Source: Chloroflexia bacterium (GTDB lineage: Bacteria; Chloroflexota; Chloroflexia; QHBQ01; JAICKM01). From it: a stretch of DNA of 64,000 nucleotides. The notes beneath the pieces were generated by a model, which saw only the letters and a list, made by a program, of their open reading frames with translations, was not told the origin of the DNA and searched no databases. Location: positions 375-64,374 of the forward strand of contig JBBRPH010000027.1 of assembly GCA_038228295.1 (NCBI GenBank), read 5' to 3'. Shown piece after piece: positions 3,470 to 32,577 of this stretch; within the stretch, counting starts at the first letter, position 1, and each line of letters starts with the position of its first letter. The translations under genes were made by a program, and so were the position numbers.

Positions 3470-4214
3470 AGAACTGCTCGAAAACCGCTGGAAAGCCGGC
3501 CTCGGCGGCCTCGTTGCCCTGCTCATGGCAGTGTTCGCAGTCTATTCCCTAGTCTGGGTAAAGCAGTTAAGCCCGCTGACGCTGGACACGCCGTTGCTCT
3601 CCACCGCAGACCGCACGCTGGTGCGCCAGGAATTGGCGAGTATCGAGGTCTGGACCTGGGCCAACTGGTTCGCTAAAAACGCGGGCCTGATCCTGGCACC
3701 GCTGGCCGCTGTGCTCGGCGGCAGCGCGATTGCGGGCGAGGTTAGTCGGGGCACCATTTTCCTGCTGCTGAGTAAGCCCCTCAGCCGCGACCGCGTGCTG
3801 CTGACCAAATACGCCGTGAGCGCCACGATCCTGCTGCTAGTCAGTGTGCTGGCAAGTGTAGGCATCGTCCTGACCACGCTGGCGCTAGGCCGGTCGCTAC
3901 CGCTGGGCGGGTTAGCGATCTCGACCGTGTTGATCTGGCTGGGTAGCCTGTCGATCCTCGGTGTGGCGCTGCTCTTCTCCGTGCCGGCGACAGACAGCCT
4001 GCGCGCGGTGGCCGGCGCGCTGGTCGTGGCGCTGCTGATCGGCGTACCGGGCTTTAGCCCCGGCAACCGGCCCTGGAACCTGACCGCCTATTGGGCCAGT
4101 CTAAGTGCCTATCAGGGCCGCGAGTTCCCGCTACTCGAACTGGTCGTCTGTGGGGTCACGGCCGCGCTGCCGTTAGCGGGAGCGCTGCTGTTGTTTCGCC
4201 GCCGGGCGTTCTGA
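3459..4214 (+). CDS. ABC-2 type permease
   Basis: About six hydrophobic segments; IAGEVSRGTIFLLLSKPLSRDRVLLTK motif; overlaps the ATPase stop. Confidence 0.85.
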   Translation: MVAKELLENRWKAGLGGLVALLMAVFAVYSLVWVKQLSPLTLDTPLLSTADRTLVRQELASIEVWTWANWFAKNAGLILAPLAAVLGGSAIAGEVSRGTIFLLLSKPLSRDRVLLTKYAVSATILLLVSVLASVGIVLTTLALGRSLPLGGLAISTVLIWLGSLSILGVALLFSVPATDSLRAVAGALVVALLIGVPGFSPGNRPWNLTAYWASLSAYQGREFPLLELVVCGVTAALPLAGALLLFRRRAF

Positions 4215-4278
4215 TTGCAATTGGAACTGTAGGGGCGCTACGTGCTGCGCCCATGCGACGATGGAAGGAGGATCGGTA

Positions 4279-5172
4279 GTGCAAAAGGTGTTAAAATGGT
4301 TGTTCCCACTAGTGATTGTGGCGAACATTATCCTGGTGTGGGCGAAAGTATTAGATGCTCGCACGGCGCTGCTCGTCGGCGGTACACTGGAACTGTTGGG
4401 CTTCGTGCTGGGCCTGCGTGCGGTGGGCGCGGCAGTGCTAGCCTACCGGCGCAACCGCGCAGCAGGCTTGAACGTGGAGGCGGCGTTAGAAGACGGCTTG
4501 ACCATCCTGTTCCCGCGCCGGGTCGCCCGCCTAGTGGCAATGGAGCCGCGCATCTATGTTTGCCTCTACCGCTCCTTGCGCCGCCGCTCGCCGGCGGCCG
4601 ACGAGTTTGCCTATCACCGCCGCTCTTTCATCGGCTCAATAGTCGCGCTGATCTTTCTGACCGCGCCTTTCGAGGTACTGGCTTATGAACTGTTGGTGCC
4701 GTGGGCCGGAGTGCGGTGGGCCTTGCTAGCCGTCACAGTCTACTCGATGATCTGGCTGCTGGGCTTCTATGCCTCGCTGCATACCCTGCCCTACCGGCTA
4801 GCCGCCGACGGTCTGCAGTTGCACTACGGCATCTTAGCCGAAGGCAGCGTACCCTATAGCGCGTTGGCCGACGTGATGCTAGAGCGACACAAAGCCCCCA
4901 GCGGACGCGAGGGGTTGCAAACCGCACCCGACGGCGCCTGCTATCTTGCTGTCGGAGGACGCACCGACCTGACCCTGCGCCTAAACAAGCCGATAACCAT
5001 CGCGGGCCTTTTCAAACCGCTACCGGCCACCACCGTGCTGCATTTAGCCGCCGACGACCCCGCTGCGCTAGTCGTCGCCCTGCGTGCGCGTGCCGGCCTT
5101 GCGCCAACCGAGCCGCCTACCTCGGCGCAGCCGGTGGTTCGCGGGCCGTGGGCCGTAGCGCGCGAATCATGA
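4279..5172 (+). CDS. Membrane protein of unknown function (likely last gene of the Ytr-like operon)
   Basis: GTG start after AGGAGG; four hydrophobic segments and a soluble C-terminus. Confidence 0.7.
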   Translation: MQKVLKWLFPLVIVANIILVWAKVLDARTALLVGGTLELLGFVLGLRAVGAAVLAYRRNRAAGLNVEAALEDGLTILFPRRVARLVAMEPRIYVCLYRSLRRRSPAADEFAYHRRSFIGSIVALIFLTAPFEVLAYELLVPWAGVRWALLAVTVYSMIWLLGFYASLHTLPYRLAADGLQLHYGILAEGSVPYSALADVMLERHKAPSGREGLQTAPDGACYLAVGGRTDLTLRLNKPITIAGLFKPLPATTVLHLAADDPAALVVALRARAGLAPTEPPTSAQPVVRGPWAVARES

Positions 5173-5335
5173 GCTGTGGGCAATTTCCGCGCTTCGCGCT
5201 TCTTCACGGCCCTTCGCGGATCAAATGGTATTCGTAAGCAGCGCGAAGGGCGGAATAGAGCCGGGGCAGTTCAACCCGTCGTTATCCACAACGCAGTACT
5301 CAGCACGCTGCTCCATTCCGCACTCCGCATTCTTC

Positions 5336-6205
5336 TCAGCGACCCAGCCGGAAGAAGAAGCGTTGAGCGATCAGGAAGATGCCTAGCACCGGTAGGGTCA
5401 GCACCAGCGAGCCGGCCATCAGCAGCGGCCAGCCGGTGGGGTTGGACTGTTGCAACGCCTGGATGCCGACCGGCAGCGTGTAGTATGCCTGGTTGTTGAT
5501 GTACAGCAGGGGGCTAAGGTAATCGCTCCAATAGAACACGGTCGCCAGCACCGTCACCGCACCGATAGCCGGCCAGACCTGCGGCAGCCCGATGGACCAC
5601 CAGACGCGCCAGGAGCCGGCCCCGTCGAGTCGCGCCTGCTCAAAGGTGGCGGGCGGAACGCGGGCGAAAGCCCAGGCGAACAGTAGCACATAAAGCGGGC
5701 TGGTGCCCATAATCGCTGGGGCAATCAGCGCCAGCGGCGTATCCAGGATGCCGATGGTCTTGTAGATCAGGAAGCGCGGCAGCCAGAGCGCCATCGTCGG
5801 CACCAGCAGCGCGGCCACCGAGACCGCGACCAACGCCGTGCGCGCCCGTGCGGGCAACGTGGCCAGCGCAAACCCGGCCAGCGATCCCGTCAGCACGGTG
5901 AGCGGCACCGCCACTAGGATCACCAGCAGTGAGTTGCCCAGCCAGCGGCCCAGCGCAAAGTTTTGGAAGATGGTGGGATAATTCTCCCACGAAAGCACGG
6001 CCGGAATCCACTCAAAGCGGACGGCCGGCGGCAGGGTGGTCGCGCGCAACGAGGTGCTGAACATCCAGAGCAGCGGCAAGATGCCGCCCAACCCCACCAG
6101 CACGGTGAGCACCAGTCGGACTGGTTGCCACCAAGCCCGTTCCCAGCCCGGCGGTAGGCCCGGCACGGCGACCGTGGGTAAGCCCTCAACGGCATCATCC
6201 AGCAT
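5336..6205 (-). CDS. Carbohydrate ABC transporter permease (MalG-like)
   Basis: EQARLDGAGSWRVWWSIGLP EAA loop; WENY..LGNS pattern. Confidence 0.9.
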   Translation of the reverse strand: MLDDAVEGLPTVAVPGLPPGWERAWWQPVRLVLTVLVGLGGILPLLWMFSTSLRATTLPPAVRFEWIPAVLSWENYPTIFQNFALGRWLGNSLLVILVAVPLTVLTGSLAGFALATLPARARTALVAVSVAALLVPTMALWLPRFLIYKTIGILDTPLALIAPAIMGTSPLYVLLFAWAFARVPPATFEQARLDGAGSWRVWWSIGLPQVWPAIGAVTVLATVFYWSDYLSPLLYINNQAYYTLPVGIQALQQSNPTGWPLLMAGSLVLTLPVLGIFLIAQRFFFRLGR

Positions 6206-7121
6206 ATTGCACCTCGCGCCAGCGCCGCGCGGCCAGGAACAGGCCGCCGATCACCAGCGCGGTGACTGCGTACAGCACCAGCGTCATGGCGGCGGCATAG
6301 CCGTAGCGACCAAACTCGGTGGCGTTGCGATAGATCCAGTAGGGCAGATAGGTGGTCGCGTAGTAGGGTCCGCCTTGCGTCACAATCACCGCCGCGACAA
6401 AGCTGGCTTGGAAGCTGAAGACCACGTCGCGCAGCGTCAACAGCAACAGCGAGGGGGCCAACAGTGGCAACGTGAGGTGGCGCACCTGCTGGTCGCCGCT
6501 TGCGCCGTCCAGCTCAGCGGCCTCATAAAGGTCACGCGGGATCTCACCCAACGCCGCTAGCAGCAGCACCATGCCCTCGCCCACCGTGAACAGCAGCAGC
6601 AGGATCACCGCCGCCTGCGCCGCACGCGGGTCGGTCAGCCAGATGCCGGGGGTCGCGACCGGGTTCACCGCCTCCGTCTCCACCCCGCCGGCGAAGATTT
6701 GCGACAGTCCGTTGAGTGGGCCATAGAGCGGATTGAGCAAATACAGCCAGATCAACGCATAGGCCACATCGGGGATGAGTGTCGGCAGGTAGGCCGCGCC
6801 GCGCAAAAAGCTGGTAGCGCGCCCGCGGCTCTGCACCAGCAGGGCCAATCCTAGCGCGCCCAGCACCCGCAACGGAACCGCCACCACTACCAGGATCAGC
6901 GAAGCCCGCAGCCCGTTCCAGAACTTATCGTCGCGCAGCAGTTCAGCAAAGTTGTCGAAGCCCAGGAACTGCGGCGGGCTTAACGCATCGTACTGCGTGA
7001 AGGCAATTCCTGCTGTCAACAGCGCGGGCAGCCCGATCAGCCCGATCAGCCCGATCAGATACGGGCCGAGCATCGCGATCAGTCCCCAATGATAGCGTGA
7101 AATGCGTCGCGCGAACGCCAT
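6195..7121 (-). CDS. Sugar ABC transporter permease (MalF-like)
   Basis: GFDNF..D..FWN; IPRDLYEAAELDGAS EAA loop. Confidence 0.9.
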   Translation of the reverse strand: MAFARRISRYHWGLIAMLGPYLIGLIGLIGLPALLTAGIAFTQYDALSPPQFLGFDNFAELLRDDKFWNGLRASLILVVVAVPLRVLGALGLALLVQSRGRATSFLRGAAYLPTLIPDVAYALIWLYLLNPLYGPLNGLSQIFAGGVETEAVNPVATPGIWLTDPRAAQAAVILLLLFTVGEGMVLLLAALGEIPRDLYEAAELDGASGDQQVRHLTLPLLAPSLLLLTLRDVVFSFQASFVAAVIVTQGGPYYATTYLPYWIYRNATEFGRYGYAAAMTLVLYAVTALVIGGLFLAARRWREVQYAG

Positions 7122-19128: not shown

Positions 19129-21291
19129 TCAGGGCAGCCAGCCGCGTGCGCGCACGGTATCTACCCCCAACAAGCCCAACAAAACCTCGTTCGGCGTGCC
19201 GGCGAACTCCGGATGTAGCTCAAAGCGATTACGTTGGAAATACTGCACTGTATAGGTTTTGCCGTTGGTCGTGTTGGCTTCCTGGAACTCCTCGCTGATC
19301 GGGTAGCCGAACACGGCCAACCCACCGTGGCTTTGCCAATAAGCTAGGAACGCGCCGCTCAGGTTGTGCTGCACCGGCGGGAACCACTGGTGGGTCGCGT
19401 CGGTCGGCTGCGGTGTACCGGGCAGGAAGGTGCGGCCCTTCGAGGTCTCTACCCCCAGCAGGCCCAACAGCACTTCATTGGCGCTACCAGCAAACTCCGG
19501 GTGCAACTCGAAGCGATTACGCTGGAAGTATTGCACCGTGTAGAGTCGGCCGTCGGTGGCACTCTGCTCCTGAAATTGCTCACTGATCGGATAGCCGAAG
19601 ATCGGCAGTCCGCCATGGGCTTGCCAGTAGGCCAGGAACGGCCCGCGCAGCGTGTGCTGCACCGGCGCAAAATAGGTGGGATCGGTGCTGACATTGGCGG
19701 GTGCAGGCACACCGTCAAAAGCCGGCGGGCGCGCCAGAGCCAGCGTGAAGTTGGCCTGCGCCCCGTTGCCGGCCGATCCACCCACTTCCACTGTCTGCGG
19801 CGCGGGAAAGCCGAAGCCGCCGCTTTTGATCGCCAACTGTACGGTGTATTTACCGGCCGGCAGCCCATCGAACACATAGAGGCCCGACGCATCCGGCTGG
19901 ATGTCGCGCGGCGGACTGCCGTTCTGCGGCAACAGCAACACATCCACCAGGGCCGGATCAATGCCCGTCACAGTGCCTTGCACCTTTGAACCGCCGGCCG
20001 GGCCGGGGGCGGGCTTGGGCGGCGGGCTGCCGGGCTTCGGTCCGGCCGGGGCTTGCTGCAACGCCCGTAGTAAGTTGATGCGACCCCAGCCCGCTTTCTG
20101 ATCGAAGCCGGGGTCGCCGATGTCGTCCGCCGTCTGCTGCAACAGCAGTTGCACCTGCTCCGGGGTCAGGTTCGGGTTCACCGACAGGATCAGCGCCGCC
20201 GCGCCGGCCACCATCGGGCTTGCCATCGAGGTGCCGCTTTCGCTCTCATAGTCCGGCTTGCGGTCGCGCACCCACGTACTCAAGATATTAATGCCCGGTG
20301 CGGCCACATCCACATAGTCGCCATACGACGAGAAGCCCGCCACACTGTCGCGGCGGCTACTCGCACTCACCGCGATCACTTCGTCGTAGCCGCCGGGATA
20401 TTCGGGCCGCCCGTCCGGCGTATTGCCGGCCGCCACAACGATAGTCACGCCTTTGCTGCGCGCATATTTGATCGAGTCATGTTCCGCGTCGGTGCCGAAG
20501 TCGGCGCCGGCACTGATGTTGATCACCCGCGCGCCGTTATCCACCGCCCAGCGGATGCCCTGCGCGAAGTTGTAGGTGGAACCGGCTCCCTGCGCGTTCA
20601 ACACCTTGACCGGCAGGATCTTCGTTTGCCACGAAATGCCGGCAATGCCGATACCGTTGTTGCCCGCCGCGCTGGCGATACCGGTCACATGGGTGCCGTG
20701 TCCATTGTCGTCATAGGGGTCTTCATTATTTGAGACAAAATTATGCCCCGGCAGGATACGCCCGGCAAACTCCGGGTGGTTGGTTGCCAGGCCGGTATCC
20801 AGGATCGCCACGATCAGGTCGGGGTTGCCGGTGCTGATGTCCCACGCCGGTTGCGCTTGCAGTGCGGTCAGCCACCATTCCTGATCGGCATAATGCTCAT
20901 CGTTCGGGGTCATCAAGAGGTGCATCGGGTAATCCGGCTCGGCATAGGCCACCGCCGGATTCGTGCGCAAGGCTGCCACCGCCGCCGCCACGTCGAGGTT
21001 GGCGCTACCCTGCAATAGATACAGACCGTTGCCCGCCGTCGCCGCTTGCGCCTGCAAGCCCCACTGCGCCAATAACCCGCCCATCAGGCCCAGCGCGTGG
21101 GTATCACGCAGTTGCACCACCACACGCCCCGGCAACCAATCCGCCGCCGTGCCTTGTGGCCCACGTACATTCACCGCCGGGGCCGCCGGGTGCGCCGCTG
21201 CGCCGCCCGATCCTAATCCCGTCCCCAGGCTCAGGGCCAGCACTAGCCCCGCCGCCACCCGGCCTATCGGCCGTCGCCACCAATCATGCAT
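19129..21291 (-). CDS. S8 subtilisin-like serine protease with C-terminal Chloroflexi-type repeats
   Basis: ILDTG, HGTHVTG, GTSMASP catalytic triad; two GGLxxFGYPISE..VQYFQRNRFELHPE repeats; GGAGG RBS before MHDWW. Confidence 0.93.
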   Translation of the reverse strand: MHDWWRRPIGRVAAGLVLALSLGTGLGSGGAAAHPAAPAVNVRGPQGTAADWLPGRVVVQLRDTHALGLMGGLLAQWGLQAQAATAGNGLYLLQGSANLDVAAAVAALRTNPAVAYAEPDYPMHLLMTPNDEHYADQEWWLTALQAQPAWDISTGNPDLIVAILDTGLATNHPEFAGRILPGHNFVSNNEDPYDDNGHGTHVTGIASAAGNNGIGIAGISWQTKILPVKVLNAQGAGSTYNFAQGIRWAVDNGARVINISAGADFGTDAEHDSIKYARSKGVTIVVAAGNTPDGRPEYPGGYDEVIAVSASSRRDSVAGFSSYGDYVDVAAPGINILSTWVRDRKPDYESESGTSMASPMVAGAAALILSVNPNLTPEQVQLLLQQTADDIGDPGFDQKAGWGRINLLRALQQAPAGPKPGSPPPKPAPGPAGGSKVQGTVTGIDPALVDVLLLPQNGSPPRDIQPDASGLYVFDGLPAGKYTVQLAIKSGGFGFPAPQTVEVGGSAGNGAQANFTLALARPPAFDGVPAPANVSTDPTYFAPVQHTLRGPFLAYWQAHGGLPIFGYPISEQFQEQSATDGRLYTVQYFQRNRFELHPEFAGSANEVLLGLLGVETSKGRTFLPGTPQPTDATHQWFPPVQHNLSGAFLAYWQSHGGLAVFGYPISEEFQEANTTNGKTYTVQYFQRNRFELHPEFAGTPNEVLLGLLGVDTVRARGWLP

Positions 21292-21644
21292 AAGATCTTT
21301 GCCTCCGTATGGACCATCATTGCTACCGTAAGCCGCGCCCCGACCCACCAAAAAGGGTCCCGCACCATCATTGTCCGAGACCCATCGCTAGTATAACAAC
21401 ATCCGCTCGATTCCCCAACCCCCTAGGCCAAAGCTTTATGCAACGCTTATAGATCCGCTGTCAATCCTTATGCGCTACTTAGTGCCGCTGCTCAATCCAC
21501 CCAGCCCTGTTGCGGTAACAGACAGCCAATACGATCAGATCCCCTATACGTTGCTATTAAAGCATAGAACGGTCTTTGAAAGCGTGGGACAAAGTGATAC
21601 AAAAAGGAGCACAAAAAGTAGTACGGCTCGGTAAGAACTCCCCA

Positions 21645-23498
21645 TCAGCGCACCACCGCCGTCACCCGCAACGCCGCGCCACACACTAGCCCCAACGCTG
21701 CCGCAATCGCCGGGGCCAACTCGCCCTGGATCGCATCACGCATATAGGCCGCCGGCACGCCCAGCACCGCCCGCCCGCCGGCCGGGTCCAGGCTCAACAA
21801 CACCGCATAGCGCAGCACTCGCCCATAAGTTTCGGCCGGCAGGCCCACCCGCAAATGGATTAACGCCGCCTGCCACAGCCGCCCACACGCTGCCCCGGCC
21901 AAGCCAGACTCGCCGGAAGCAGCAGTATCCTCAGCCGGTAACACAACCACAGCAGGCATTGCGCTCCCGACCGGCACAGCAAGCGGATTAACATTTTCCG
22001 CCAAAGTGCTTTGTGCTTCCGTGCGGCGCTGTGGGGCTAAAGCTGCAGCGCTTCGCGGCGCTTCGTGTCCCGGCGTTGCTTCAGGAGCCGACTCCGCCGA
22101 CCGCCCACGCCGCCGCACCAGGCTCGTAAAATAGGCGCCTGGCCGGCTCACGCGGCCTTTCGCTTGTGCCCGCAGCGTGGCTTGAATGGCCCACTCGTAC
22201 AGGTCGGGTCCGTGATCGGCCACACACTGCCGGTGCCACTCACGACTGCCTACATCGTTCAGTGCCGCAGTGCCCCAATCCAGCAGGGCCGTGGAGTCCT
22301 CCGCACTCAGCGGTGTTCCGGCCGAGGCCAGTGCGCCGTTAACGTTCGTAGATTCATCCGTTTTAACGGATTCACGATTAACGTTAACGAGTGTGCCCGT
22401 GAGTCCGCCTAGTGCGGACTCCTGTCCCAGGTCCACTCCGCCTAGTGCGGACTCCTTGCCCAGCGCCGCGCCTATACCCGCCTCTTCGCCGATCCTGCCT
22501 CCGCCCGATGCGGACTCGTTCGACTCCGCCCAATGCGGACTCCCCGTTCCGCCGACTCCGCCCGATGCGGACTCCATTTGCCGACCCTGCCCGATGGGCC
22601 ACGTCGTGCCGGTTTCGAGGCCGCACGGAGCGGACTCCTGCCGTACTTCTATAGCAAGCCCGATCTCCGCACTCGTAACGAGTCCGCTTGATGCGGAGTC
22701 CGCCTGGATCTCCATAATCCCCCCAGGTATACCCACTCCGCCTGCTGCGGACTCCCCTACCCCGGTTCCCTCCATTATAGGCACGGCACACGGGGGGTTA
22801 GATCCCCCTGTTTCCATTCCGTATTCAAACGTGCTTTGGCGCGCAGGCGCCAAGCGCGCACGATAACTGCCTGGTGCAGTTAGCCGCCGGCCGTCCACGA
22901 GCGTCGCCACGCCGGCGCGGTCCCGTGTGACACGATAGGCGCGGCCCAAGATAGTGGTCAAGCGTGTCAACTCCGTCGTGGGGCCGAGCGGGGCGAGCGG
23001 GATGGTTAGCCAGCCGGTGTGTTTGCGGGTCCAAACGTCGGCATCAAAGAGCAGATACTCCAGCAAGCCTAGCGATGGCAGTGGTAGTCCCCGTGTCACT
23101 CGGTACAACTTCTGCTTGCCGCGTGGAATCTCTACTTCTTCCACCTGCACCAAGCCGCAGGTCAGTAGCAGGTTGCTGTAGCGGGCAATCGTGTCCTGGG
23201 AGGTGTCCAAATAGGCGGCCAGTGCAGTCTGTGTGCAATGCGCCCACCCGAAATGAGGATGACCAGGGGTAGTCTCCTCAAAGCTGTGCAACGCCAGCAG
23301 CAGCCCCAACCCGGTCGGCTTCAGCAGTGGCCCCCACTCTCGCACCAGCGCGGGACTGATCTCGCCCACCGGTGGATAAGCGGATCGCGCCGCCGGGTGG
23401 GCCGTCCCTGCCGAGGTCGGCGAGGCGCTATGGGGGAATATAGTGGGCGCGCTCTCTTTTGCGCTAGGATCGCTGATAATCGCTGGTTTGCCGCGCAT
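21645..23498 (-). CDS. Putative replication initiator (N-terminal wHTH, central iteron-encoded region, C-terminal DnaA-N-like domain)
   Basis: CTQTALAAYLDTSQDTIARYSNLLLTCGLVQV wHTH; SRPGAYFTSLVRR motif; C-terminal LWQAALIHL..ETYGRVL..AVLGVPAAYMRDAIQGELAPAIAAAL resembles DnaA domain I; sits directly downstream of parAB. Confidence 0.72.
   Translation of the reverse strand: MRGKPAIISDPSAKESAPTIFPHSASPTSAGTAHPAARSAYPPVGEISPALVREWGPLLKPTGLGLLLALHSFEETTPGHPHFGWAHCTQTALAAYLDTSQDTIARYSNLLLTCGLVQVEEVEIPRGKQKLYRVTRGLPLPSLGLLEYLLFDADVWTRKHTGWLTIPLAPLGPTTELTRLTTILGRAYRVTRDRAGVATLVDGRRLTAPGSYRARLAPARQSTFEYGMETGGSNPPCAVPIMEGTGVGESAAGGVGIPGGIMEIQADSASSGLVTSAEIGLAIEVRQESAPCGLETGTTWPIGQGRQMESASGGVGGTGSPHWAESNESASGGGRIGEEAGIGAALGKESALGGVDLGQESALGGLTGTLVNVNRESVKTDESTNVNGALASAGTPLSAEDSTALLDWGTAALNDVGSREWHRQCVADHGPDLYEWAIQATLRAQAKGRVSRPGAYFTSLVRRRGRSAESAPEATPGHEAPRSAAALAPQRRTEAQSTLAENVNPLAVPVGSAMPAVVVLPAEDTAASGESGLAGAACGRLWQAALIHLRVGLPAETYGRVLRYAVLLSLDPAGGRAVLGVPAAYMRDAIQGELAPAIAAALGLVCGAALRVTAVVR
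22401..22754. repeat. Eight 21-bp quasi-palindromic iteron-like repeats inside the rep ORF
   Basis: Units (consensus GASTCCGC-N5-GCGGACTC) start at 22401, 22434, 22497, 22522, 22554, 22617, 22680 and 22734. Confidence 0.85.
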
Positions 23499-23583
23499 AG
23501 GTCAATCCTCGTATGAGGGTACATGACCGGCAGGCGGGCCGCACACAGAGTAAACGCTCCCCCTCCTATCGCCGCCGTTGCCC

Positions 23584-23612
23584 TTGACAAGGGATCAAAA
23601 CTGCGGTATGAT
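23584..23612 (+). promoter_or_regulatory. Sigma70 promoter, antisense to the parAB-rep direction
   Basis: TTGACA-17 bp-TATGAT with no protein ORF downstream on this strand. Confidence 0.75.
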
Positions 23613-23615
23613 AGG

Positions 23616-23805
23616 CGTGCAGGGTCTGGAAGCGGCTGTTAAAAGCCCTCCCACTACGCAAGTAGCGGACTTCCAGGATGACGCACTGACGGGAAGAGTT
23701 TACCGGCCACGCTTGCCAGGGTTAAGCCGATAGCTCCTCGGATGACAACAGTGTTGTGAAACCTGCTTTGAGAGGACTCGGGTGACGGCCGAGTCCTTTC
23801 TGTTT
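23616..23805 (+). ncRNA. Candidate small structured RNA (counter-transcript or 6S-like)
   Basis: Bracketed by a near-consensus promoter and a terminator; foldable (CTGGAAG/CTTCCAG, CTAC-GCAA-GTAG GNRA loop); no ORF. Confidence 0.55.
23770..23805 (+). terminator. Intrinsic terminator of the candidate sRNA
   Basis: GAGAGGACTCGG-GTGACGG-CCGAGTCCTTTC stem then TGTTT. Confidence 0.7.
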
Positions 23806-23891
23806 GCCCAGTTTCACCTCTTGCCCCAGGCTTTCCTCCATTACATATACAAAATCAAACGGCGCGCCGCCGCTACAGCCCTCGTGTACCA

Positions 23892-25130
23892 CTAACGTTT
23901 CCGGCTCTTCGGCACCGGCTGCACGTGCCGGGTTGTGATCGTCGGTGCTTCCGCTGTTTGGGCGGCGGCCGCTGGGATTATGGGGGCGCTGCCATACGGC
24001 AGCATCACGGCCAAATGATGCGGTAGCGGCTCGCCCTCGTAACCGGGATCGCCCAGCCGCTCTTTTTCCTCAATGTACTCCATCGCCGCACGTAACTGGG
24101 CGCGTAGCCGTACCATCGGCTCTAGCACCGCGTCCAGGTCGCGTACCTGCTGCCGGTTCAGCGGTACTTCCGTGTCTGCGCCCGGCTCGCCCAGGATCAT
24201 ATCGGCCTGCCGCAAAACGCCCATTAACAGTTCAATGCGTCGCTGCGGGTCGCCGTCCTCAAAGGCTGGTAGCACACTATCGGCCGTGGGTTCCGGGGGG
24301 ACGGGGGTGGCGGGTGTCGCCGGCTCCTTGTCGGTGCGGCCGGCTTTTCGGCGGGCCTGGGGTGGCCCGGCTCCCGCCTCGTCCCCGTTCAGCACCTGCG
24401 CCACAGCCCGCTCTACGGGCAGGCTCCGTTGCTCCTTCAGCAACTCCGCCGTCGCCAGTGTTTGCCGCCCGCTCAGGTCGTGGGTTTTGATCGCTTCAGC
24501 TAAGGCCAGTTGTACCGCCGGGTCATAGGCGACCCGTGTCAAGCCGCGCGTGCGGACTTCGGTTAATTCGCCGCCCAATAACTGCTCAATAGTTGGGTCG
24601 AGGTTCAGCATCGCCATAAAGTTTCGCACTGTGCGCCCTGACAGGCCCAACCGCTTTCCTACAAACTCATCCAACTCGTTTGATGACAGCACGGCGGCTT
24701 CCTGGGCCAGATCGTCGCGGATCTCGGTGATCGCTCGCGCAAACTCCAAATCGCTTAGGTCTTTGCGTTGACGGTTCTCGATCACTCGGTCCAGCCGCAT
24801 CTCGGTATCGGCCAGGTTCACCACTAGCGCCGGCACGGCATCCAGTCCTGCTTCGCGTGCCGCTCGTAGTCGCCGCTCGCCGGTCACGACGAAATAGCCG
24901 CCCTCATCGCGCCGCTGCACCGTGATGGGCTGCAAAATGCCTCGCTCACGCACCGACGCCGTGAGTTCGGCCATCGCTTCTGCATCGAAGTGCTTGCGTG
25001 GCTGGCGCGGATCAGTGTGGATCAAGTCGGTGTTGATCAGCTTGGCATCTTTAAGCGGCTGCACCCCCTCTTCGGGACTGGCCTGCATCAGCCCTTGCCA
25101 CGCACGTTGCGGCACGCGAGATCGGCTCAT
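23892..25130 (-). CDS. parB: ParB/RepB-family partition protein (plasmid-type, long C-terminus)
   Basis: QPRKHFD, GILQPITV, GERRLRAA, ENRQRKDL; the HTH region differs from Spo0J-type specificity residues. Confidence 0.9.
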   Translation of the reverse strand: MSRSRVPQRAWQGLMQASPEEGVQPLKDAKLINTDLIHTDPRQPRKHFDAEAMAELTASVRERGILQPITVQRRDEGGYFVVTGERRLRAAREAGLDAVPALVVNLADTEMRLDRVIENRQRKDLSDLEFARAITEIRDDLAQEAAVLSSNELDEFVGKRLGLSGRTVRNFMAMLNLDPTIEQLLGGELTEVRTRGLTRVAYDPAVQLALAEAIKTHDLSGRQTLATAELLKEQRSLPVERAVAQVLNGDEAGAGPPQARRKAGRTDKEPATPATPVPPEPTADSVLPAFEDGDPQRRIELLMGVLRQADMILGEPGADTEVPLNRQQVRDLDAVLEPMVRLRAQLRAAMEYIEEKERLGDPGYEGEPLPHHLAVMLPYGSAPIIPAAAAQTAEAPTITTRHVQPVPKSRKR

Positions 25131-25996
25131 GGCGCGGCCTGCCGTTTCGCCGGGCGCGGGGAGGTCGCGGCAGCATCCGGGCCACCGAAGCCCGGCGTGG
25201 TCGGCTCATCGGCCACAATCTCCGCCGCCAACTCCTGGTAGCATTTTGCTACCGGCGAATTACGCGCATACAGGCGGATCGGCACCCCCTGGCCCGGCGC
25301 TTCCGCCGCCACCACGCCGTAGCGGATGACCGACTTGAAAATGCGCCCGCGATAGACCTGCCCAATGTTCGTTAGGATCTCGCGGTTCAGATTGCTGCGC
25401 GAGTCGTACATCGTCGGCAGGATGCCCAGGATCTTGATCTCCGGATTAAGCTGCGCCACTTCGTTCACTGTGGTGATCAGCCGATGCACTCCGCGCAACG
25501 ACAGCAGGTGGGTCTGCAATGGGATCAGCACTTCGGTTGCCGCCACAAACGCATTCACGGTCAGCAGGGTCAAGCTCGGCGGGCAATCAATCAGGATGTA
25601 GTCGTAGCGGTCCAGCACCGGAGCCAGTGTGTCTTTCAGCACCCGTTCGCGCGTGTAGTTGCGGAACAGGTCCAACTCGGCCGCCGCTAGATCCAAGTTA
25701 GCCGGTACCAAGTCCATGCCCGCCACGGGGGTCGGGTGGATAATATCAAGGATGCTGCCCTCGCGCCGCACCATTACGTTGTACAGCGTCACATCTAAGT
25801 TGTCCGGATCTAGCCCCAGCGAGTAACTCGCCGCTGCTTGCGGGTCCAGGTCAATTAACAGCACACGCCGGCCCAGAACGGCCAGTTCGGCTCCCAGATT
25901 GACGGTGGTCGTGGTCTTACCCACGCCACCTTTCTGGTTGGCAATCGCGATAACCCGCGTCTTGGCTAGCGTCCGCCCCTGCCCAGTTTCGCTCAC
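25127..25996 (-). CDS. parA: ParA/Soj-family ATPase
   Basis: NQKGGVGKTTT, IDLDPQ, DCPPSL motifs; overlaps the parB start. Confidence 0.95.
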   Translation of the reverse strand: MSETGQGRTLAKTRVIAIANQKGGVGKTTTTVNLGAELAVLGRRVLLIDLDPQAAASYSLGLDPDNLDVTLYNVMVRREGSILDIIHPTPVAGMDLVPANLDLAAAELDLFRNYTRERVLKDTLAPVLDRYDYILIDCPPSLTLLTVNAFVAATEVLIPLQTHLLSLRGVHRLITTVNEVAQLNPEIKILGILPTMYDSRSNLNREILTNIGQVYRGRIFKSVIRYGVVAAEAPGQGVPIRLYARNSPVAKCYQELAAEIVADEPTTPGFGGPDAAATSPRPAKRQAAP

Positions 25997-26072
25997 GGCA
26001 ACCCTCTACTTAATAGTTAACCCAACTGCCTGCATCCGTCGCCCATAAACCCTGATCCGAACTCAGCACTCG

Positions 26073-26429
26073 TCAGGCCGCCGGGCTGCGACCTTCGCGG
26101 CTGATTACGCCCAACAGTTCTAACGCCCGGCGCAAGCTATTGGCGTGGAACTCTAATAAATAAGGATCGCGATCAATCAAGATGGCGCGAATCTCGACTA
26201 AGTGCAGCCCTGCCCGTTGCAACACCAGCACCCGCTCCAGCAGGTCTAGGTCGGCGGGCGTATACTGCCGCTTCCCTTCATCATCGGCCTCGCCGTCCGC
26301 TGCCCCGTCGCGCTGCACCCGCAAGTCTAACTGCTTCTCAATGTTGCGGAGTACGCGCGCCGTCGTCATTTGCCCTCGATCAGCCAACACTGCCAGGGCA
26401 TCTTGTGTACTGTAACCGCGACCTGTCAT
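26073..26429 (-). CDS. MerR-type HTH protein
   Basis: YSTQDA..TARVLRNIEKQLDL..GKRQYTPADLDLLERVLVLQRAGLHLVEIRAIL fits the MerR HTH/wing pattern. Confidence 0.7.
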   Translation of the reverse strand: MTGRGYSTQDALAVLADRGQMTTARVLRNIEKQLDLRVQRDGAADGEADDEGKRQYTPADLDLLERVLVLQRAGLHLVEIRAILIDRDPYLLEFHANSLRRALELLGVISREGRSPAA

Positions 26430-26612
26430 GTGCGTTCCCTGTGGTTCCTCTCGCCCAGCGCAGGCGACTATTTTCCCGTTGAGGCGTTTTGTCCCCTTAC
26501 ACAGCCAATTATAGCCGGTTTTTTTCCAGAGTCAAATCCCTACTACTCTAATGCGATGCCCATGTACTAACATATAGATAAGCCACCAGCCCCAACATGG
26601 TTGTCAGACCTA

Positions 26613-26641
26613 TTGACTTCATCTATGTTTTGCAGTAGTAT
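26613..26641 (+). promoter_or_regulatory. Sigma70 promoter of the ATPase-RHH pair
   Basis: TTGACT-17 bp-TAGTAT about 100 bp upstream of the ATG at 26743. Confidence 0.55.
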
Positions 26642-26742
26642 TAACATCAATGTCAAGGTGATAGCAGCGCATGGCAAGCGCAGGCCAGGTAAAAGAGACA
26701 CGCAATGACGGGCGCGTGGTCGGGTTTTATGAGAGGAACCGC

Positions 26743-27615
26743 ATGACGAGCCAGTACCAAAAACTAGCGATGGCTTTCTTCCATCCATCGTTGCGCGAAG
26801 ACCCCTTCAACCCCGAAGACAGCGCCCGCTATTTCTACCTCGCCGATCAGTACCGCGAAGCGCTCGACCTGCTCGTGCGCCACGTCTTGCGGCGTGGTGG
26901 CCTGTCCATCATCTACGGTGACGTCGGCCTCGGCAAAAGCAGCCTCATGGCAGTACTGCGTGGGCGCACGCGCAACAGTGACCTCTTCAAGAGCTTTGTC
27001 ATGGGTGAGATTCTTGATCCCTCGCAAGTTACGGATGCTGAGTTCACTCGCCAATTGCTGATCGCTTTCGACCAGAAGCCCTATGGTAGCACACGCTCCG
27101 AACTCAGCGAACAGTTCATCATCTTCCTGCAACGCCAGGCCCGTGAAGGTCGCGTGCCGCTGCTGGTGATTGATGAAGGCCAATGCCTTTCCTACGACGG
27201 CCTCGAACGGCTGCGGATCTTCCTCAACTATTCGCTGGACGACCACCGCATCCTCCAGATCGTCATCTTCGGCCAGCTTGAATTGCAGGAAAAGATCGCT
27301 AAAAAGCGCAATCTGGCCTCGCGCGTGCGGTTCACTATGACCCTTGCCCCGCTCAGTAGCGTTGCCCAGGTGCGCGAAATGATCGAATACCGCCTGCGGA
27401 CGGCGGGCCTGATTGACGGTGTGCAACTCTTCGCTGCCGGGGCCATTGAAGCTGTCTACAAACACTCCGGTGGCGTGCCGCGTCACATCGTGAACATTTG
27501 CTCGATGTGCTTCGACCAAGCACCGCGCCTCGACAAGCGCCAGATTGATGCCGACATGGTAGACCAGGTGGCCGCCCGCCTGATGCAAAAGGGAGCCTTG
27601 AACGATGGACGATGA
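26743..27615 (+). CDS. ExeA/GspA-like AAA+ ATPase (standalone)
   Basis: REDPF N-terminal motif, GDVGLGKS Walker A, LLVIDEGQ Walker B, IFGQLEL, SGGVPRHI; GAGAGGA RBS. Confidence 0.85.
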   Translation: MTSQYQKLAMAFFHPSLREDPFNPEDSARYFYLADQYREALDLLVRHVLRRGGLSIIYGDVGLGKSSLMAVLRGRTRNSDLFKSFVMGEILDPSQVTDAEFTRQLLIAFDQKPYGSTRSELSEQFIIFLQRQAREGRVPLLVIDEGQCLSYDGLERLRIFLNYSLDDHRILQIVIFGQLELQEKIAKKRNLASRVRFTMTLAPLSSVAQVREMIEYRLRTAGLIDGVQLFAAGAIEAVYKHSGGVPRHIVNICSMCFDQAPRLDKRQIDADMVDQVAARLMQKGALNDGR

Positions 27616-27997
27616 GAATTACAACCGCTCGTCACGCGGCTGGATCGAAGATCAGATGGCGAACGACCGCGCCCGTGAGGGCGAAGGCCGCCTCAAGCAG
27701 GTTGCCGTCTACTACTATCCCAAGCAACTCATCCCGTTGGACGAGCATCTCTCACGCCTCAACAGCCGCACACGTGCCTATGACGGCCTCAAAATCAACC
27801 GCAGCACCTATTTGCGGCTCTGCGGTGCGGTCCTGATGGATCTCCTTAGCGACCCGGCTTTCGCCGGTAATATGTTTGAGCGTCTTTACGATGAAGCGGA
27901 GCTGGAACATCGCCTGCGCGAACGTCTGCGTGACCTGCTTGAACTGCAACGCGCCTATCAGGAAGGTTCCCTCCGCCCCGTTCTGCCTGACTTGTAG
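27605..27997 (+). CDS. Small protein with possible ribbon-helix-helix DNA-binding motif
   Basis: KQVAVYY (strand), PKQLIPLDEHLSRL (helix), INRSTYLRL (helix); overlaps the ATPase stop. Confidence 0.55.
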   Translation: MDDENYNRSSRGWIEDQMANDRAREGEGRLKQVAVYYYPKQLIPLDEHLSRLNSRTRAYDGLKINRSTYLRLCGAVLMDLLSDPAFAGNMFERLYDEAELEHRLRERLRDLLELQRAYQEGSLRPVLPDL

Positions 27998-28406
27998 AAC
28001 CTGTATCCTCGGCATTGCTCACTGAACCCCTAATAGCATAATAAGCTAATATACTAATAAATCGGTCTGCCCGTACAGTTTCGTCTTTCCTGTATGTGCA
28101 ACGCTGTGCCCAATTAAACACAAACAACCTGCCCCCAACCTCTTGGAAAAATCCTCTCGTAACGCTATATTGCCCTAGGATGAGCTTTACATAATATACC
28201 AATATGGTTATTACTATTTTATCGGCAATTAGCTTTTCAGTGTGCTCAACAGTATAGGGTTTTACGGTAGCTTACTCAGATAATTGCTTGTGTTATGTAA
28301 ACCTAATTTATCGCAGCTTCTCACAATTGCCGTAAATCCTAGAATAGCGTGTCTATATATGCGTAACTGATCCATTTGTCTGCGTGTGCTGGCAATTGTT
28401 GCTAAT

Positions 28407-28495
28407 TATATTCTAGGAACTCGTGTTCCTAGAATATAGATGTAGTAATACGTTTGAATGCTAATCGCGTTAGGAACTCGTGTTCCTAACGCGAT
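28407..28495. repeat. Two perfect 32-bp palindromes sharing core TAGGAAC-TCGT-GTTCCTA
   Basis: 28407-28438 TATATTCTAGGAAC-TCGT-GTTCCTAGAATATA; 28464-28495 ATCGCGTTAGGAAC-TCGT-GTTCCTAACGCGAT. Confidence 0.9.
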
Positions 28496-28566
28496 AACCA
28501 TGTAAGCGGACGATAAAATGTTCCCTTAGCTGGGGCGTTGTGCTCCAAGCAATGGAGAGCATGGGG

Positions 28567-29154
28567 CTAGGCTCCCTTCAACGACCATACAGGCCCATGT
28601 CCAGGATAGATTATGGTGCCGTTGTGGGCACGGATTTTCGCCCAACTCTGTTGTACGGGGTCCAGCGGGTCGCCCATTGTAGCCCAGGGTGGCGTTAAGT
28701 CGCCGGTAAAGGCTTCGCCCGTATCCAGTACGAGCGTGAGGCTGTCGTCTGAATGCCCCGGTGTACTCACGGTTTCACCAAGGATGTCAATTCCTTGTAG
28801 GACGCTACGACTCTCTTCAGCAGTGACTATGAGGTTATCTGTCATGTCAATATCGCTATAGTGATCTTGTGGTTTCATGTGGCGTTGTAACAAGGGAATG
28901 CTTTGCTTTTGTGTTTCCAGCACGATGAGTTGGAGACCGAACTGTTTCAGATCCTGGGCGAGACCCGCATGATCAGGGTGATAGTGGGTGACAAGCAAAT
29001 AGGGGATGGTGGATAATTTGATGCCGGCGCGTTTGCACGTATGCTGAAATTGCGGTAGTGTGTTGGGCCAACCGGCATCAATCAGCAAATGCGGACGGTC
29101 CGTGGCGAGAACATAGTAGTTGGTGGATGCATAGCCCACATTGACGATATTCAT
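28567..29154 (-). CDS. MBL-fold metallo-hydrolase
   Basis: THYHPDHAG, TPGHSDDS, FTGD, PGHG motifs; lower GC than neighbours. Confidence 0.9.
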   Translation of the reverse strand: MNIVNVGYASTNYYVLATDRPHLLIDAGWPNTLPQFQHTCKRAGIKLSTIPYLLVTHYHPDHAGLAQDLKQFGLQLIVLETQKQSIPLLQRHMKPQDHYSDIDMTDNLIVTAEESRSVLQGIDILGETVSTPGHSDDSLTLVLDTGEAFTGDLTPPWATMGDPLDPVQQSWAKIRAHNGTIIYPGHGPVWSLKGA

Positions 29155-29189
29155 TGGAGCCCCCTCCCTTCGGCTATACAGCGGTTGCC

Positions 29190-29636
29190 CTACGACCGTT
29201 CCGTGACATGACTACGCACTACATCGGCATAGATGGGCTGTACGGTGCGGATGAACAGGCCCGCGCGCTCGGCAAACTCGGCTAGCCGTGCCTCGTCTAG
29301 CGGGTACAAGGGATGTGTCTCGTAGAGGCGCACCCAGCCGCGATCCCACTCCTCCAATTCAACCCCCAGGCCGAGCGTTGCTTTGAGGTCGAACAGGCAG
29401 AAGCTGAGGCCATGGCGGATTTGCGCGTTGCGGACGGCAGTTGCTTCGCAGTGCAGGCCCAGTTCCAGCTGGAGCGTGCGTTCGTGGATCCATACTTCGT
29501 AGTGAATCGCCTCATCGCTACCGTACCAAAGTTTGAGCAGGCGACCGTGCGGCTCAATGTGCAGCGGCTCCTCGCTTTCAGGCAAATAGGGTCGCAGGGC
29601 AGCGGGTAGGCGGCGTAGGAACTGATACGGCAGCAT
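29190..29636 (-). CDS. Hypothetical protein
   Basis: Start overlaps the lysA stop; globular, protein-like composition. Confidence 0.7.
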   Translation of the reverse strand: MLPYQFLRRLPAALRPYLPESEEPLHIEPHGRLLKLWYGSDEAIHYEVWIHERTLQLELGLHCEATAVRNAQIRHGLSFCLFDLKATLGLGVELEEWDRGWVRLYETHPLYPLDEARLAEFAERAGLFIRTVQPIYADVVRSHVTERS

Positions 29637-30892
29637 CAGGCACCTCGTGGTAGCAGGTCGGCATATGTTTCGCGGGAACGGATCAGGCAGTGAGTGGTAC
29701 CGGCGACCAACACTTCGGCTGGGCGTGGGCGGCTGTTGTACTGCGAAGCCATCGCAAAGCCATACGCCCCGGCCTGCCGGATCGCCAGCAGCGCACCTTC
29801 GCCCAGCGCCGGCAATTGCCGATCCGTCGCCAAGAAGTCGGACGACTCGCAGATGGGACCGGCCAAGTCGGTCAGGTAGAAATCATCATCGGGGCTGGGC
29901 TGCTGTAGCGGTTCGATGGGGTGGTAAGCACCATAAAGCGCCGGGCGCAGCAGATCGTTCATGCCGGCATCCGCGACGAGCAGTTGCCGGTCGGCGGTGG
30001 CCGATTTGCGGTACAGAACACGAGTGAGCAGTACCCCGGCCGGTCCCATCAGGTAGCGACCGGGTTCCAATTCCAGTTGCAAGCGACGTCCGGCTAGCAA
30101 AGGGCGCAAACCGGTAGCCAGTTCGGCTGGGCCTTGTGGCGCGTCGCCCGGTTGATAGGGAATCGCCAGCCCACCGCCGATGCCCAGGCTGTGCAGCGTG
30201 ATCCCTTCACCGGCCAGTGTATCCCATAAGGCCAGCAGGCGGCGCGTAGATTCTATAATCGGTGCTATCGTCTCCATCTGTGAGCCGATATGGGCGTGTA
30301 GGCCGACCGGGCGTAGATGCGGGTGCGTGACGGCCCAGCGGGTGAGGACTAGCGCCTCATCAGGCGGCACGCCAAACTTGCTGTTCGCAGTACCGGTCGT
30401 GATATACGGATGCGTATGTGCCTCCACATCGGGGTTGACACGCACCGCCACCGCTGCGACTGTGCCCAGCCCCGCCGCGATCTCGGCCAGCGCCGCCAAC
30501 TCGCCCCGCGACTCAATATGGAAGGCGCGAATGCCCGGACCGTGCAGGGCTTCGGCCAACTCAGTGCGGGTTTTGCCCACGCCGGCAAAGACAATGCGGT
30601 CCGCCGGAAAGCCACTATGCTGCGCCACGTACAATTCGCCGCCGGAGACCACGTCTACACTTGCACCGCGCTCGGCCAGCAGGCGGGCCAGGGTCGGGTT
30701 GCTGTTGGCTTTGAGCGCATAGCAGATGCGTAGCGGCACGCCGAGGTTGCCGAGGTGCTCAATCAGGCTATCGTAAGCGGCTTCGAATGTGGCCCGGCTG
30801 TAGACATAAAGCGGTGTGCCATACTCGGCGACCAACGCCGCCAGCGGCACATTTTCAGCGCAAAGCTGCCCTTCCTGATAGTGGAACATCAT
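29636..30892 (-). CDS. lysA: Diaminopimelate decarboxylase
   Basis: YGTPLYVY, YALKANSN (PLP Lys), DVVSGGE, HAHIGSQ, EPGRY, GPICESSD, GAYG. Confidence 0.96.
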   Translation of the reverse strand: MMFHYQEGQLCAENVPLAALVAEYGTPLYVYSRATFEAAYDSLIEHLGNLGVPLRICYALKANSNPTLARLLAERGASVDVVSGGELYVAQHSGFPADRIVFAGVGKTRTELAEALHGPGIRAFHIESRGELAALAEIAAGLGTVAAVAVRVNPDVEAHTHPYITTGTANSKFGVPPDEALVLTRWAVTHPHLRPVGLHAHIGSQMETIAPIIESTRRLLALWDTLAGEGITLHSLGIGGGLAIPYQPGDAPQGPAELATGLRPLLAGRRLQLELEPGRYLMGPAGVLLTRVLYRKSATADRQLLVADAGMNDLLRPALYGAYHPIEPLQQPSPDDDFYLTDLAGPICESSDFLATDRQLPALGEGALLAIRQAGAYGFAMASQYNSRPRPAEVLVAGTTHCLIRSRETYADLLPRGA

Positions 30893-32561: not shown

Positions 32562-32577
32562 GGTTTCATGTGAAACA
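32562..32577. promoter_or_regulatory. Candidate chromosomal parS site
   Basis: GGTTTCATGTGAAACA matches TGTTTCACGTGAAACA at 14 of 16 positions; intergenic. Confidence 0.65.

Follow-up and report, generated by a model that had tools for sequence, protein, structure and literature searches.

A dyad-repeat array within a candidate initiator gene as the probable origin of a parA-parB-rep replicon in Chloroflexia

Why a single open reading frame (ORF) should contain eight copies of one palindrome, seven read in the same frame and one in another, is the question raised by a locus of a Chloroflexia bacterium (assembly GCA_038228295.1, contig JBBRPH010000027.1, positions 375 to 64,374). The window, meaning the whole 64,000-nucleotide stretch that was analysed, holds these copies between 22401 and 22754, within a 617-amino-acid minus-strand ORF at 21645-23498 that follows a parA-parB pair. 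An earlier note, made from the sequence alone, took them for initiator-binding iterons at an intragenic origin. Comparison of sequences now makes it probable that the eight palindromes are dyad iterons for the product of their own gene and that, with a neighbouring AACGTT tract, they constitute the vegetative origin of a parA-parB-rep replicon.

The array is composed of eight dyad units, each 21 bp long and fitting the pattern GASTCCGC-N5-GCGGASTC, that share the core TCCGC-N5-GCGGA. These candidate initiator-binding iterons start, on the plus strand, at 22401, 22434, 22497, 22522, 22554, 22617, 22680, and 22734, and a motif scan locates all of them inside the ORF, as the earlier note had described, with start-to-start distances of 33, 63, 25, 32, 63, 63, and 54 bp. 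Seven units are read in frame 0 and encode ESAAGG, DSASSG, ESAPCG, ESASGG, ESASGG, ESALGG, and ESALGG, so the ESAxGG-like peptide first reported is more exactly (E/D)SAxxG. The unit at 22522-22542 was said to be offset by 25 bp and to read SPHWAES, and both spacing and translation agree; it is read in a shifted frame as GSPHWAES rather than ESAxxG, and the distances on its two sides (25 and 32 bp) add to 57. A shifted copy is also present in homologues P0002-P0004, where it encodes GSPQ/RxAES. A weak ninth unit, at 22297-22317, is separated from the array by the AT-rich tract; it has one mismatch in its gene-strand core (ACCGC-N5-GCGGA) and a shifted reading of TPLSAED, and locus L062 has a similar copy. 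One further match with two mismatches, at 22538-22558, is only the shared arms of its two neighbouring units. The invariant part of the unit is T-C-C-G-C-(A)...G-C-G-G-A, with outer arm positions 40-70% conserved and the outer S/S positions frequently non-complementary.

The repeat is concentrated at this locus. The degenerate 21-mer, at up to 3 mismatches, has 13 matches in the window against 2.15 expected, a number reached by 0 of 100 shuffles. The exact core occurs 19 times in the 5.68-Mb draft genome and 7 of the 19 occurrences fall within these 354 bp, while the same arms with other spacer lengths give 5-17 genome matches, none in the array and one elsewhere on the contig (spacer 3). Given this concentration and the shuffle result, chance clustering and a dispersed repeat element can both be dismissed. 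A genome-wide element of the repetitive extragenic palindrome (REP) or miniature inverted-repeat transposable element (MITE) type was rejected, core counts outside the array being at background.

Does selection act on the DNA or on the encoded peptide? Homologous DNA was taken from loci of Chloroflexia metagenome-assembled genomes (MAGs) and metagenomes, with site counts covering ten genes and the counts for the AT-rich tract and for stop codons covering 13 loci. The ten genes, whose proteins are 42-60% identical to the window ORF, contain the core 5-12 times each. Their 89 in-gene cores are distributed over two frames, with 75 in frame 0 (S-A-x-x-G), 14 in frame 2, where they encode (S/D/P)-P-x-x-A-(E/D), and none in frame 1; this is the pattern of conserved repeats in variable frames that the earlier note had proposed to look for. 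In L005, L060, and L061, perfect palindrome copies lie 46-53 bp 5' of the start codon. Within the S-A-x-x-G motifs, TCC accounts for 44 of the 45 Ser codons (against 20% in the rest of these genes) and GGA for 41 of the 45 Gly codons (against 10%). The fourth codon is NGC in 42 of 45, so the fourth residue is always G, C, or S. A logo of 84 sites has T-C-C-G-C-A and G-C-G-G-A at 89-100%, the outer arms being far weaker. Homologues that keep the peptide and lose the palindrome, which would have pointed to selection on protein, are not what is found: the core is retained in the shifted and non-coding copies as well. The fixed synonymous codons, the use of two frames, the non-coding copies, and the uniqueness of the motif in the genome establish that the repeat is maintained at the DNA level, as had been claimed.

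The same evidence bears on whether the repeat matters solely as an ESAxGG peptide or an mRNA hairpin, its DNA identity stemming from recent duplication or gene conversion. A preponderance of one frame (75 of 89 copies) with a small-residue peptide is what a protein role would predict, and the 8-bp G+C-rich stem would fold in RNA. However, rare synonymous codons are fixed even though the proteins have diverged to the extent given above, 14 copies encode an unrelated peptide in another frame, and some copies are non-coding. Compensatory changes are absent as well; the core is invariant, copies with one mismatch break the pairing, and the outer S/S positions often cannot pair. Both the protein-only and the RNA-hairpin readings are rejected on codon, frame, and non-complementarity evidence, and we regard them as hardly credible.

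The array segment is also a true part of the gene. The reading frame of the gene has 0 stops over 5,288 nt of array and AT-rich tract from 13 loci, compared with 46 and 101 in the other frames, so the segment is genuinely coding and its frame is held open. Across loci the sites are mostly separated by 33, 51-54, or 63 bp. The spacings show a 10.5-bp periodicity (R 0.47; p < 0.001 relative to a uniform null), which is only suggestive because the loci share ancestry.

Beside the array is a tract at 22338-22397 with AACGTT/TAACG repeats, encoding GTLVNVNRESVKTDESTNVN, that is a candidate DNA-unwinding element. It reaches 64% A+T per 50 nt against 38% locally, and only 0.67% of the 50-mers of the window are equally AT-rich. 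The placement of this tract is fixed: in 13 of 13 loci, belonging to both repeat subgroups described below, it begins 24-36 bp past the core of the last site in the direction of the gene, and in each gene these 50-60 nt have the highest A+T content (60-74%). The peptides it encodes in these loci resemble VNV..R..VK...N.NVN. Its G+C content at third codon positions is 0.30-0.60, compared with 0.68-0.85 in the remainder of each gene, and its Val codons end in A or T in 49 of 50 cases, compared with 28% elsewhere. Judged by this codon composition, synonymous sites in the tract are driven toward A/T.

The ORF matches no Pfam, NCBIfam, or PHROG family (in Pfam and PHROG there is no O-type match even at E up to 10) and has no match by tblastn against 72,556 plasmids. 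It belongs to a small family, with 15 homologues in 5.8 billion proteins and 25 cluster representatives at E ≤ 1e-3 among 1.84 billion proteins. The N-terminal region (22836-23354, minus strand, approximately residues 49-221) is predicted to be a winged-helix DNA-binding region with the recognition helix SQDTIARY and the wing IPRGKQK. Its model (predicted local distance difference test, pLDDT, 76; predicted TM-score, pTM, 0.74) has a winged helix-turn-helix fold, with one clear winged helix-turn-helix and a second helix/hairpin unit. The best Foldseek matches of the model are MarR, DnaD-N, and ArsR at E about 0.04, the search retrieving no RepE, RepA, or pi, and the sequence profile matches ArsR/MarR in the Protein Data Bank (PDB) at E 0.01-0.05. 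A conserved four-helix middle domain (WHRxC...GAYFTSL; 22092-22304, minus strand), modelled at pLDDT above 90, has no sequence relative in the PDB.

The last ~80 residues (21648-21896, minus strand) are homologous to DnaA domain I, their profile matching 4tps (E 2.3e-7), 8btg (E 8e-6), and 2e0g (E 1.4e-3) in the PDB. By Foldseek the C-terminal model superimposes on 4tps_B with a TM-score of 0.92 and a root-mean-square deviation of 1.2 Å, and the next match is the helicase loader DciA. DnaA domain I contacts helicase and regulators. With its winged-helix N-terminus, its DnaA domain I C-terminus, and its position after parA-parB, the ORF is a credible replication initiator, and the array sits in the disordered linker between the predicted DNA-binding and recruiting domains.

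The arrangement has a precedent in phage. Lambdoid phages have their origin halfway along gene O, where O dimers bind iterons that are 19-bp inverted repeats and where an AT tract adjoins them; relatives differ in iteron number, and extra iterons make O longer (PMC7466680). As in the lambda origin, the sites lie midway through the initiator gene, in the segment that links a DNA-binding N-terminal domain to a C-terminal domain with a recruiting role; they are inverted repeats of 19-21 bp, and an AT-rich tract flanks the last of them. It is because of this matching layout that the array is read as dyad iterons and the AACGTT tract as a probable unwinding element. The differences are substantial. 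The ORF is without O homology (no Phage_rep_O; no Pfam or PHROG match), and there are 8-12 sites here, irregularly spaced and in two reading frames, in contrast to 4-6 in lambda. The C-terminus is DnaA domain I and not a P-binding domain, and the gene belongs to a parA-parB module surrounded by housekeeping-type genes rather than to a phage.

A mechanism can be proposed from this likeness. Dimers of the N-terminal winged-helix domain would bind the 21-bp dyads. Because the sites are mostly 33, 51-54, or 63 bp apart, they would lie on about the same face of the helix, so that the bound proteins might bundle the DNA as in the lambda O-some. The resulting strain would melt the adjoining AT tract, and the C-terminal DnaA-domain-I module would then recruit the host helicase or its loader, replacing the O-P link. 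We infer each of these steps, the dimer state included, and also a probable autoregulation in which binding of the initiator inside its own gene throttles its own transcription. Since the origin lies in the linker between two domains, its DNA must both hold the sites and stay translatable, a dual-coding demand that would be solved by a core readable as S-A-x-x-G or, when shifted, as P-x-x-A-E/D.

The earlier note had likened the locus to repC as well as to lambda O. In repC, oriV lies inside the gene, close to an A+T region in which the synonymous composition is important, and iterons are absent (PMC3155836). The repABC family is described as confined to Alphaproteobacteria (PMC7610768). Similar features are the order of partition ATPase, ParB-like protein, and initiator, a candidate antisense RNA between the second and third genes, and an origin in the initiator gene by an A+T-rich region. 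The initiator here, however, is not RepC (no Pfam or NCBIfam family), a dyad array dominates, and the host is a member of Chloroflexia. The comparison with lambda applies to the layout of iterons and AT tract, and that with repC applies to the operon layout and the in-gene origin but fails for the iterons, which repC lacks. Lambda O is the closer analogue.

Among plasmid and secondary-chromosome initiators, RepA, RepE, and pi (Rep_3) and RctB of Vibrio chromosome 2 share with this system a winged-helix initiator, repeated sites, an adjacent AT-rich unwinding element, and use on large secondary replicons. The palindromic copies at the rep promoter of some homologues lie where iteron initiators have their dimer operators, and they resemble these. 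Homology to Rep_3 or RctB is nonetheless absent, the model has a single clear winged helix where two in tandem would be expected of these initiators, the dyads are in the gene instead of being direct repeats beside it, and DnaA domain I is fused to the C-terminus. The likeness to DnaA itself is confined to domain I, to which the last 80 residues correspond in both sequence profile and fold. That domain is C-terminal here, not N-terminal, the AAA+ domain III and domain IV are missing, and the genome keeps a normal dnaA and oriC elsewhere.

The homologous loci fall into subgroups whose sites differ, which bears on what protein reads them. Subgroup 2 (L007-L010, L057-L059) has the same gene layout and AT tract as subgroup 1, to which the window belongs, but another 20-bp repeat, GCrrTGTTTCACCAGTGAACAATG. 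This repeat (GTTTCACCAGTGAACAATG) occupies both linkers of the gene and, in L007 and L009, is also found 3' of the stop codon. Its coordinates are 6633-7817 in L007, 6613-7725 in L009, and 971-1631 in L008, and AT-rich AGTTGAAAGTT / AGTTTTGAGTTTTG repeats lie beside these copies. By analogy with incA of P1, the extra copies may be a second array for copy control. The predicted recognition helix of the initiator changes with the repeat, from SQD[TS]IARY in subgroup 1 to GRT[ST]I[IV]RY in subgroup 2, and the wing differs as well, with a 4-residue insert in subgroup 2. By contrast, the ParB helix-turn-helix SGR[TS]VRNF is identical in both subgroups despite their unrelated repeats.

More remote relatives extend the comparison. 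On contig C70 of the same genome, a second ORF stands beside another parAB pair and shares the DnaA-domain-I C-terminus at 63% identity, with a different winged helix-turn-helix. Upstream of this ORF (L064 4633-5555; ORF 5493-7037) lie 11 or more direct iterons GTGGACnnnTTGTGCTACCAGCGTGGAC, of which three are spaced by 22 bp, and one inverted iteron copy is at the gene start; the paralogous array thus has the appearance of a textbook classical iteron origin, of the direct-repeat kind from which the in-gene dyads differ. In L066 (5016-5250), a remote relative by its winged helix-turn-helix, in-gene dyads CGTTGT-N11-ACAACG have an AT tract rich in AACG repeats immediately after them. Its protein has two Pfam-significant DnaA_N domains, its neighbours resemble a mobile element (an HTH_17 excisionase-like ORF), and its 6.7-kb locus contains no parA or parB. 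Two more distant relatives have peptide repeats in the linker, PPNYEA five times in P0027, and TFVRQA twice with DLTLKT three times in P0032, and these may be DNA-level repeats.

Given that parA-parB precede rep in all close loci, the main rival explanation is that the array is a centromere, a parS-like cluster comparable to sopC of plasmid F, for the ParB encoded upstream, the rep linker being merely the first tolerant DNA past parB. Short palindromes arrayed downstream of parB are a frequent form of centromere, and parS sites on chromosomes can be intragenic. The subgroup-2 repeat, moreover, includes the canonical parS half-site TGTTTCAC, and no multi-copy candidate parS other than the array was found in the loci, none of which has a canonical parS within 2 mismatches. 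Several lines of evidence nevertheless favour the initiator over ParB as the likely binder of the sites. The predicted recognition helix and wing of the initiator differ between the subgroups, and the ParB recognition helix is constant although the repeats are unrelated. The C70 ORF that shares the C-terminus has its iteron array beside it. An AT tract under synonymous-site selection and perfect copies at the rep start are not features of a centromere. The distant relative L066 has the array and AT tract with parAB absent nearby, and a 16-bp palindrome at 26641, kept in both subgroups, offers an alternative ParB (or MerR) site. A centromeric array is accordingly judged quite unlikely.

The partition genes and their surroundings complete the module. 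ParB (ParB_N and HTH_ParB; 23892-25130, minus strand) is directly upstream of rep in the same orientation, and is preceded by the ParA ATPase (25127-25996, minus strand), which is 72-87% identical across loci. The order parA-parB-rep is kept in all nine loci with upstream flank. The parB-rep spacer contains a candidate antisense RNA on the plus strand (23584-23805) with the promoter TTGACA-17-TATGAT, matching 11 of 12 consensus positions, and a terminator-like hairpin. Its conserved core is at ~23711-23799, long stretches of it are identical in 7 loci, and it belongs to the module but lies outside the array; Rfam has no family match in 21000-29500. A near-site at 23652-23672, identical in L001 and L002, was considered as a Rep operator and dropped because it forms a CTAC-GCAA-GTAG hairpin within this conserved antisense-RNA candidate. 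The 16-bp palindrome at 26641-26656, TTAACATCAATGTCAA (consensus TTGACATYRATGTCAA), is single-copy in the genome. It lies on the parA side of the module, where a MerR-like ORF (26073-26429) and an AAA_22 ORF (26671-27615) share a divergent promoter region, and may serve as an operator for MerR or as a ParB site.

A second alternative accepts the initiator, or the initiator and ParB together, as the binder but assigns the sites to control, as an in-gene roadblock or operator or as handcuffing or copy-control sites like incA of P1, and places the true origin elsewhere, for example in the AT-rich 28-29 kb region with its twin palindromes; a variant gives the sites a dual ori/centromere role. In keeping with this, 28001-30000 has the lowest G+C of the window (0.53) and the cumulative skew minimum is closer to it, and the further subgroup-2 arrays in the second linker and past the stop codon would suit control iterons. 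Repeats that precede parAB in Deinococcus are reported to serve both as ori and as parS-like sites (PMC7671480). Yet the AACG-repeat AT tract is joined to the array in every locus, even in the distant relative, and control arrays usually accompany an origin array of the same repeat, whereas this genome has no second array. This alternative, its dual-role variant included, is considered unlikely.

The array is also not the chromosomal origin. This is so because the chromosomal origin is on another contig and the DnaA boxes of the window are scattered, with no cluster. The chromosomal dnaA and its origin are on contig C30 (L065 about 1855-2230 and 3600-6170), where 18 TTATCCACA boxes (at most 1 mismatch; 1.1 expected) flank dnaA on both sides. 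Bac_DnaA matches occur on contigs C30, C2, and C152, and none is in the window ORF. Approximately 3 kb from the C30 oriC are six 16-bp parS-like palindromes TGTTTCAYRTGAAACA in alternating orientation. The window has a single parS-like site, GGTTTCATGTGAAACA at 32562-32577, which is 6.5 kb from parA and one base off the six oriC-side sites. With topoisomerase I, a LysA-type decarboxylase, and DNA ligase also encoded in the window, the replicon may be a chromid or second chromosome. In the related MAG G001 the module is at ~1.743 Mb of contig C2 (2,614,392 bp), with dnaA on a different contig, so that C2 may be a secondary replicon of megabase size.

Several points weigh against an initiator-bound origin in the rep gene. 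GC skew is uninformative: the cumulative minimum of the window is at ~26-28 kb, 4-5 kb off the array and at a switch of gene orientation (a divergent promoter). The skew of G001 C2, from twenty 20-kb samples and a continuous 400 kb, is noisy, with no V at the gene and a local minimum ~70 kb away. The winged-helix model is of only moderate confidence, its Foldseek E is weak (0.04), and the RepE, RepA, and pi folds were not among its matches. As for the protein that reads the sites, parA-parB accompany the gene in every close homologue, so co-occurrence cannot discriminate against a ParB site. The comparison of subgroups involves only two site classes, and the specificity of ParB may depend on residues outside the recognition helix. 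Finally, the subgroup-2 repeat begins with its canonical parS half-site. The in-gene origin bound by its own initiator remains the reading we consider probable.

A broader proposal, which we hold to be plausible without leaning toward it, is that the ORF represents a new initiator superfamily that combines a winged helix, a linker carrying repeats, and DnaA domain I, has its origins in coding linkers, and drives large secondary replicons in Chloroflexia. The AACG/AACGTT tract might then be a new sequence-specific unwinding or single-stranded DNA recognition element common to distant members with different iterons. An origin inside an initiator gene is already known from lambdoid phages and repC. 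What is new is the family combining a winged helix with DnaA domain I, the host phylum, the use of one DNA site in two frames, and the AACG-type AT tract common to distant members; the literature searched contains no description of the ORF family or of Chloroflexi origins of this type.

If the proposed origin is correct, this would be the first candidate origin and initiator for Chloroflexia secondary replicons, in a phylum for which the searched literature describes neither a plasmid nor a chromid replication system, and vectors for Chloroflexia might be built on the rep gene by itself as a compact replicon. DnaA domain I would have a new use as a portable helicase-recruiting module. The linker would be a clear natural example of dual coding, with DNA sites for a binding protein limiting the choice of codons, and even of frame, in a disordered segment. 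The lambda solution of an origin within the initiator gene would then have arisen again, in a cellular replicon and with an unrelated protein.

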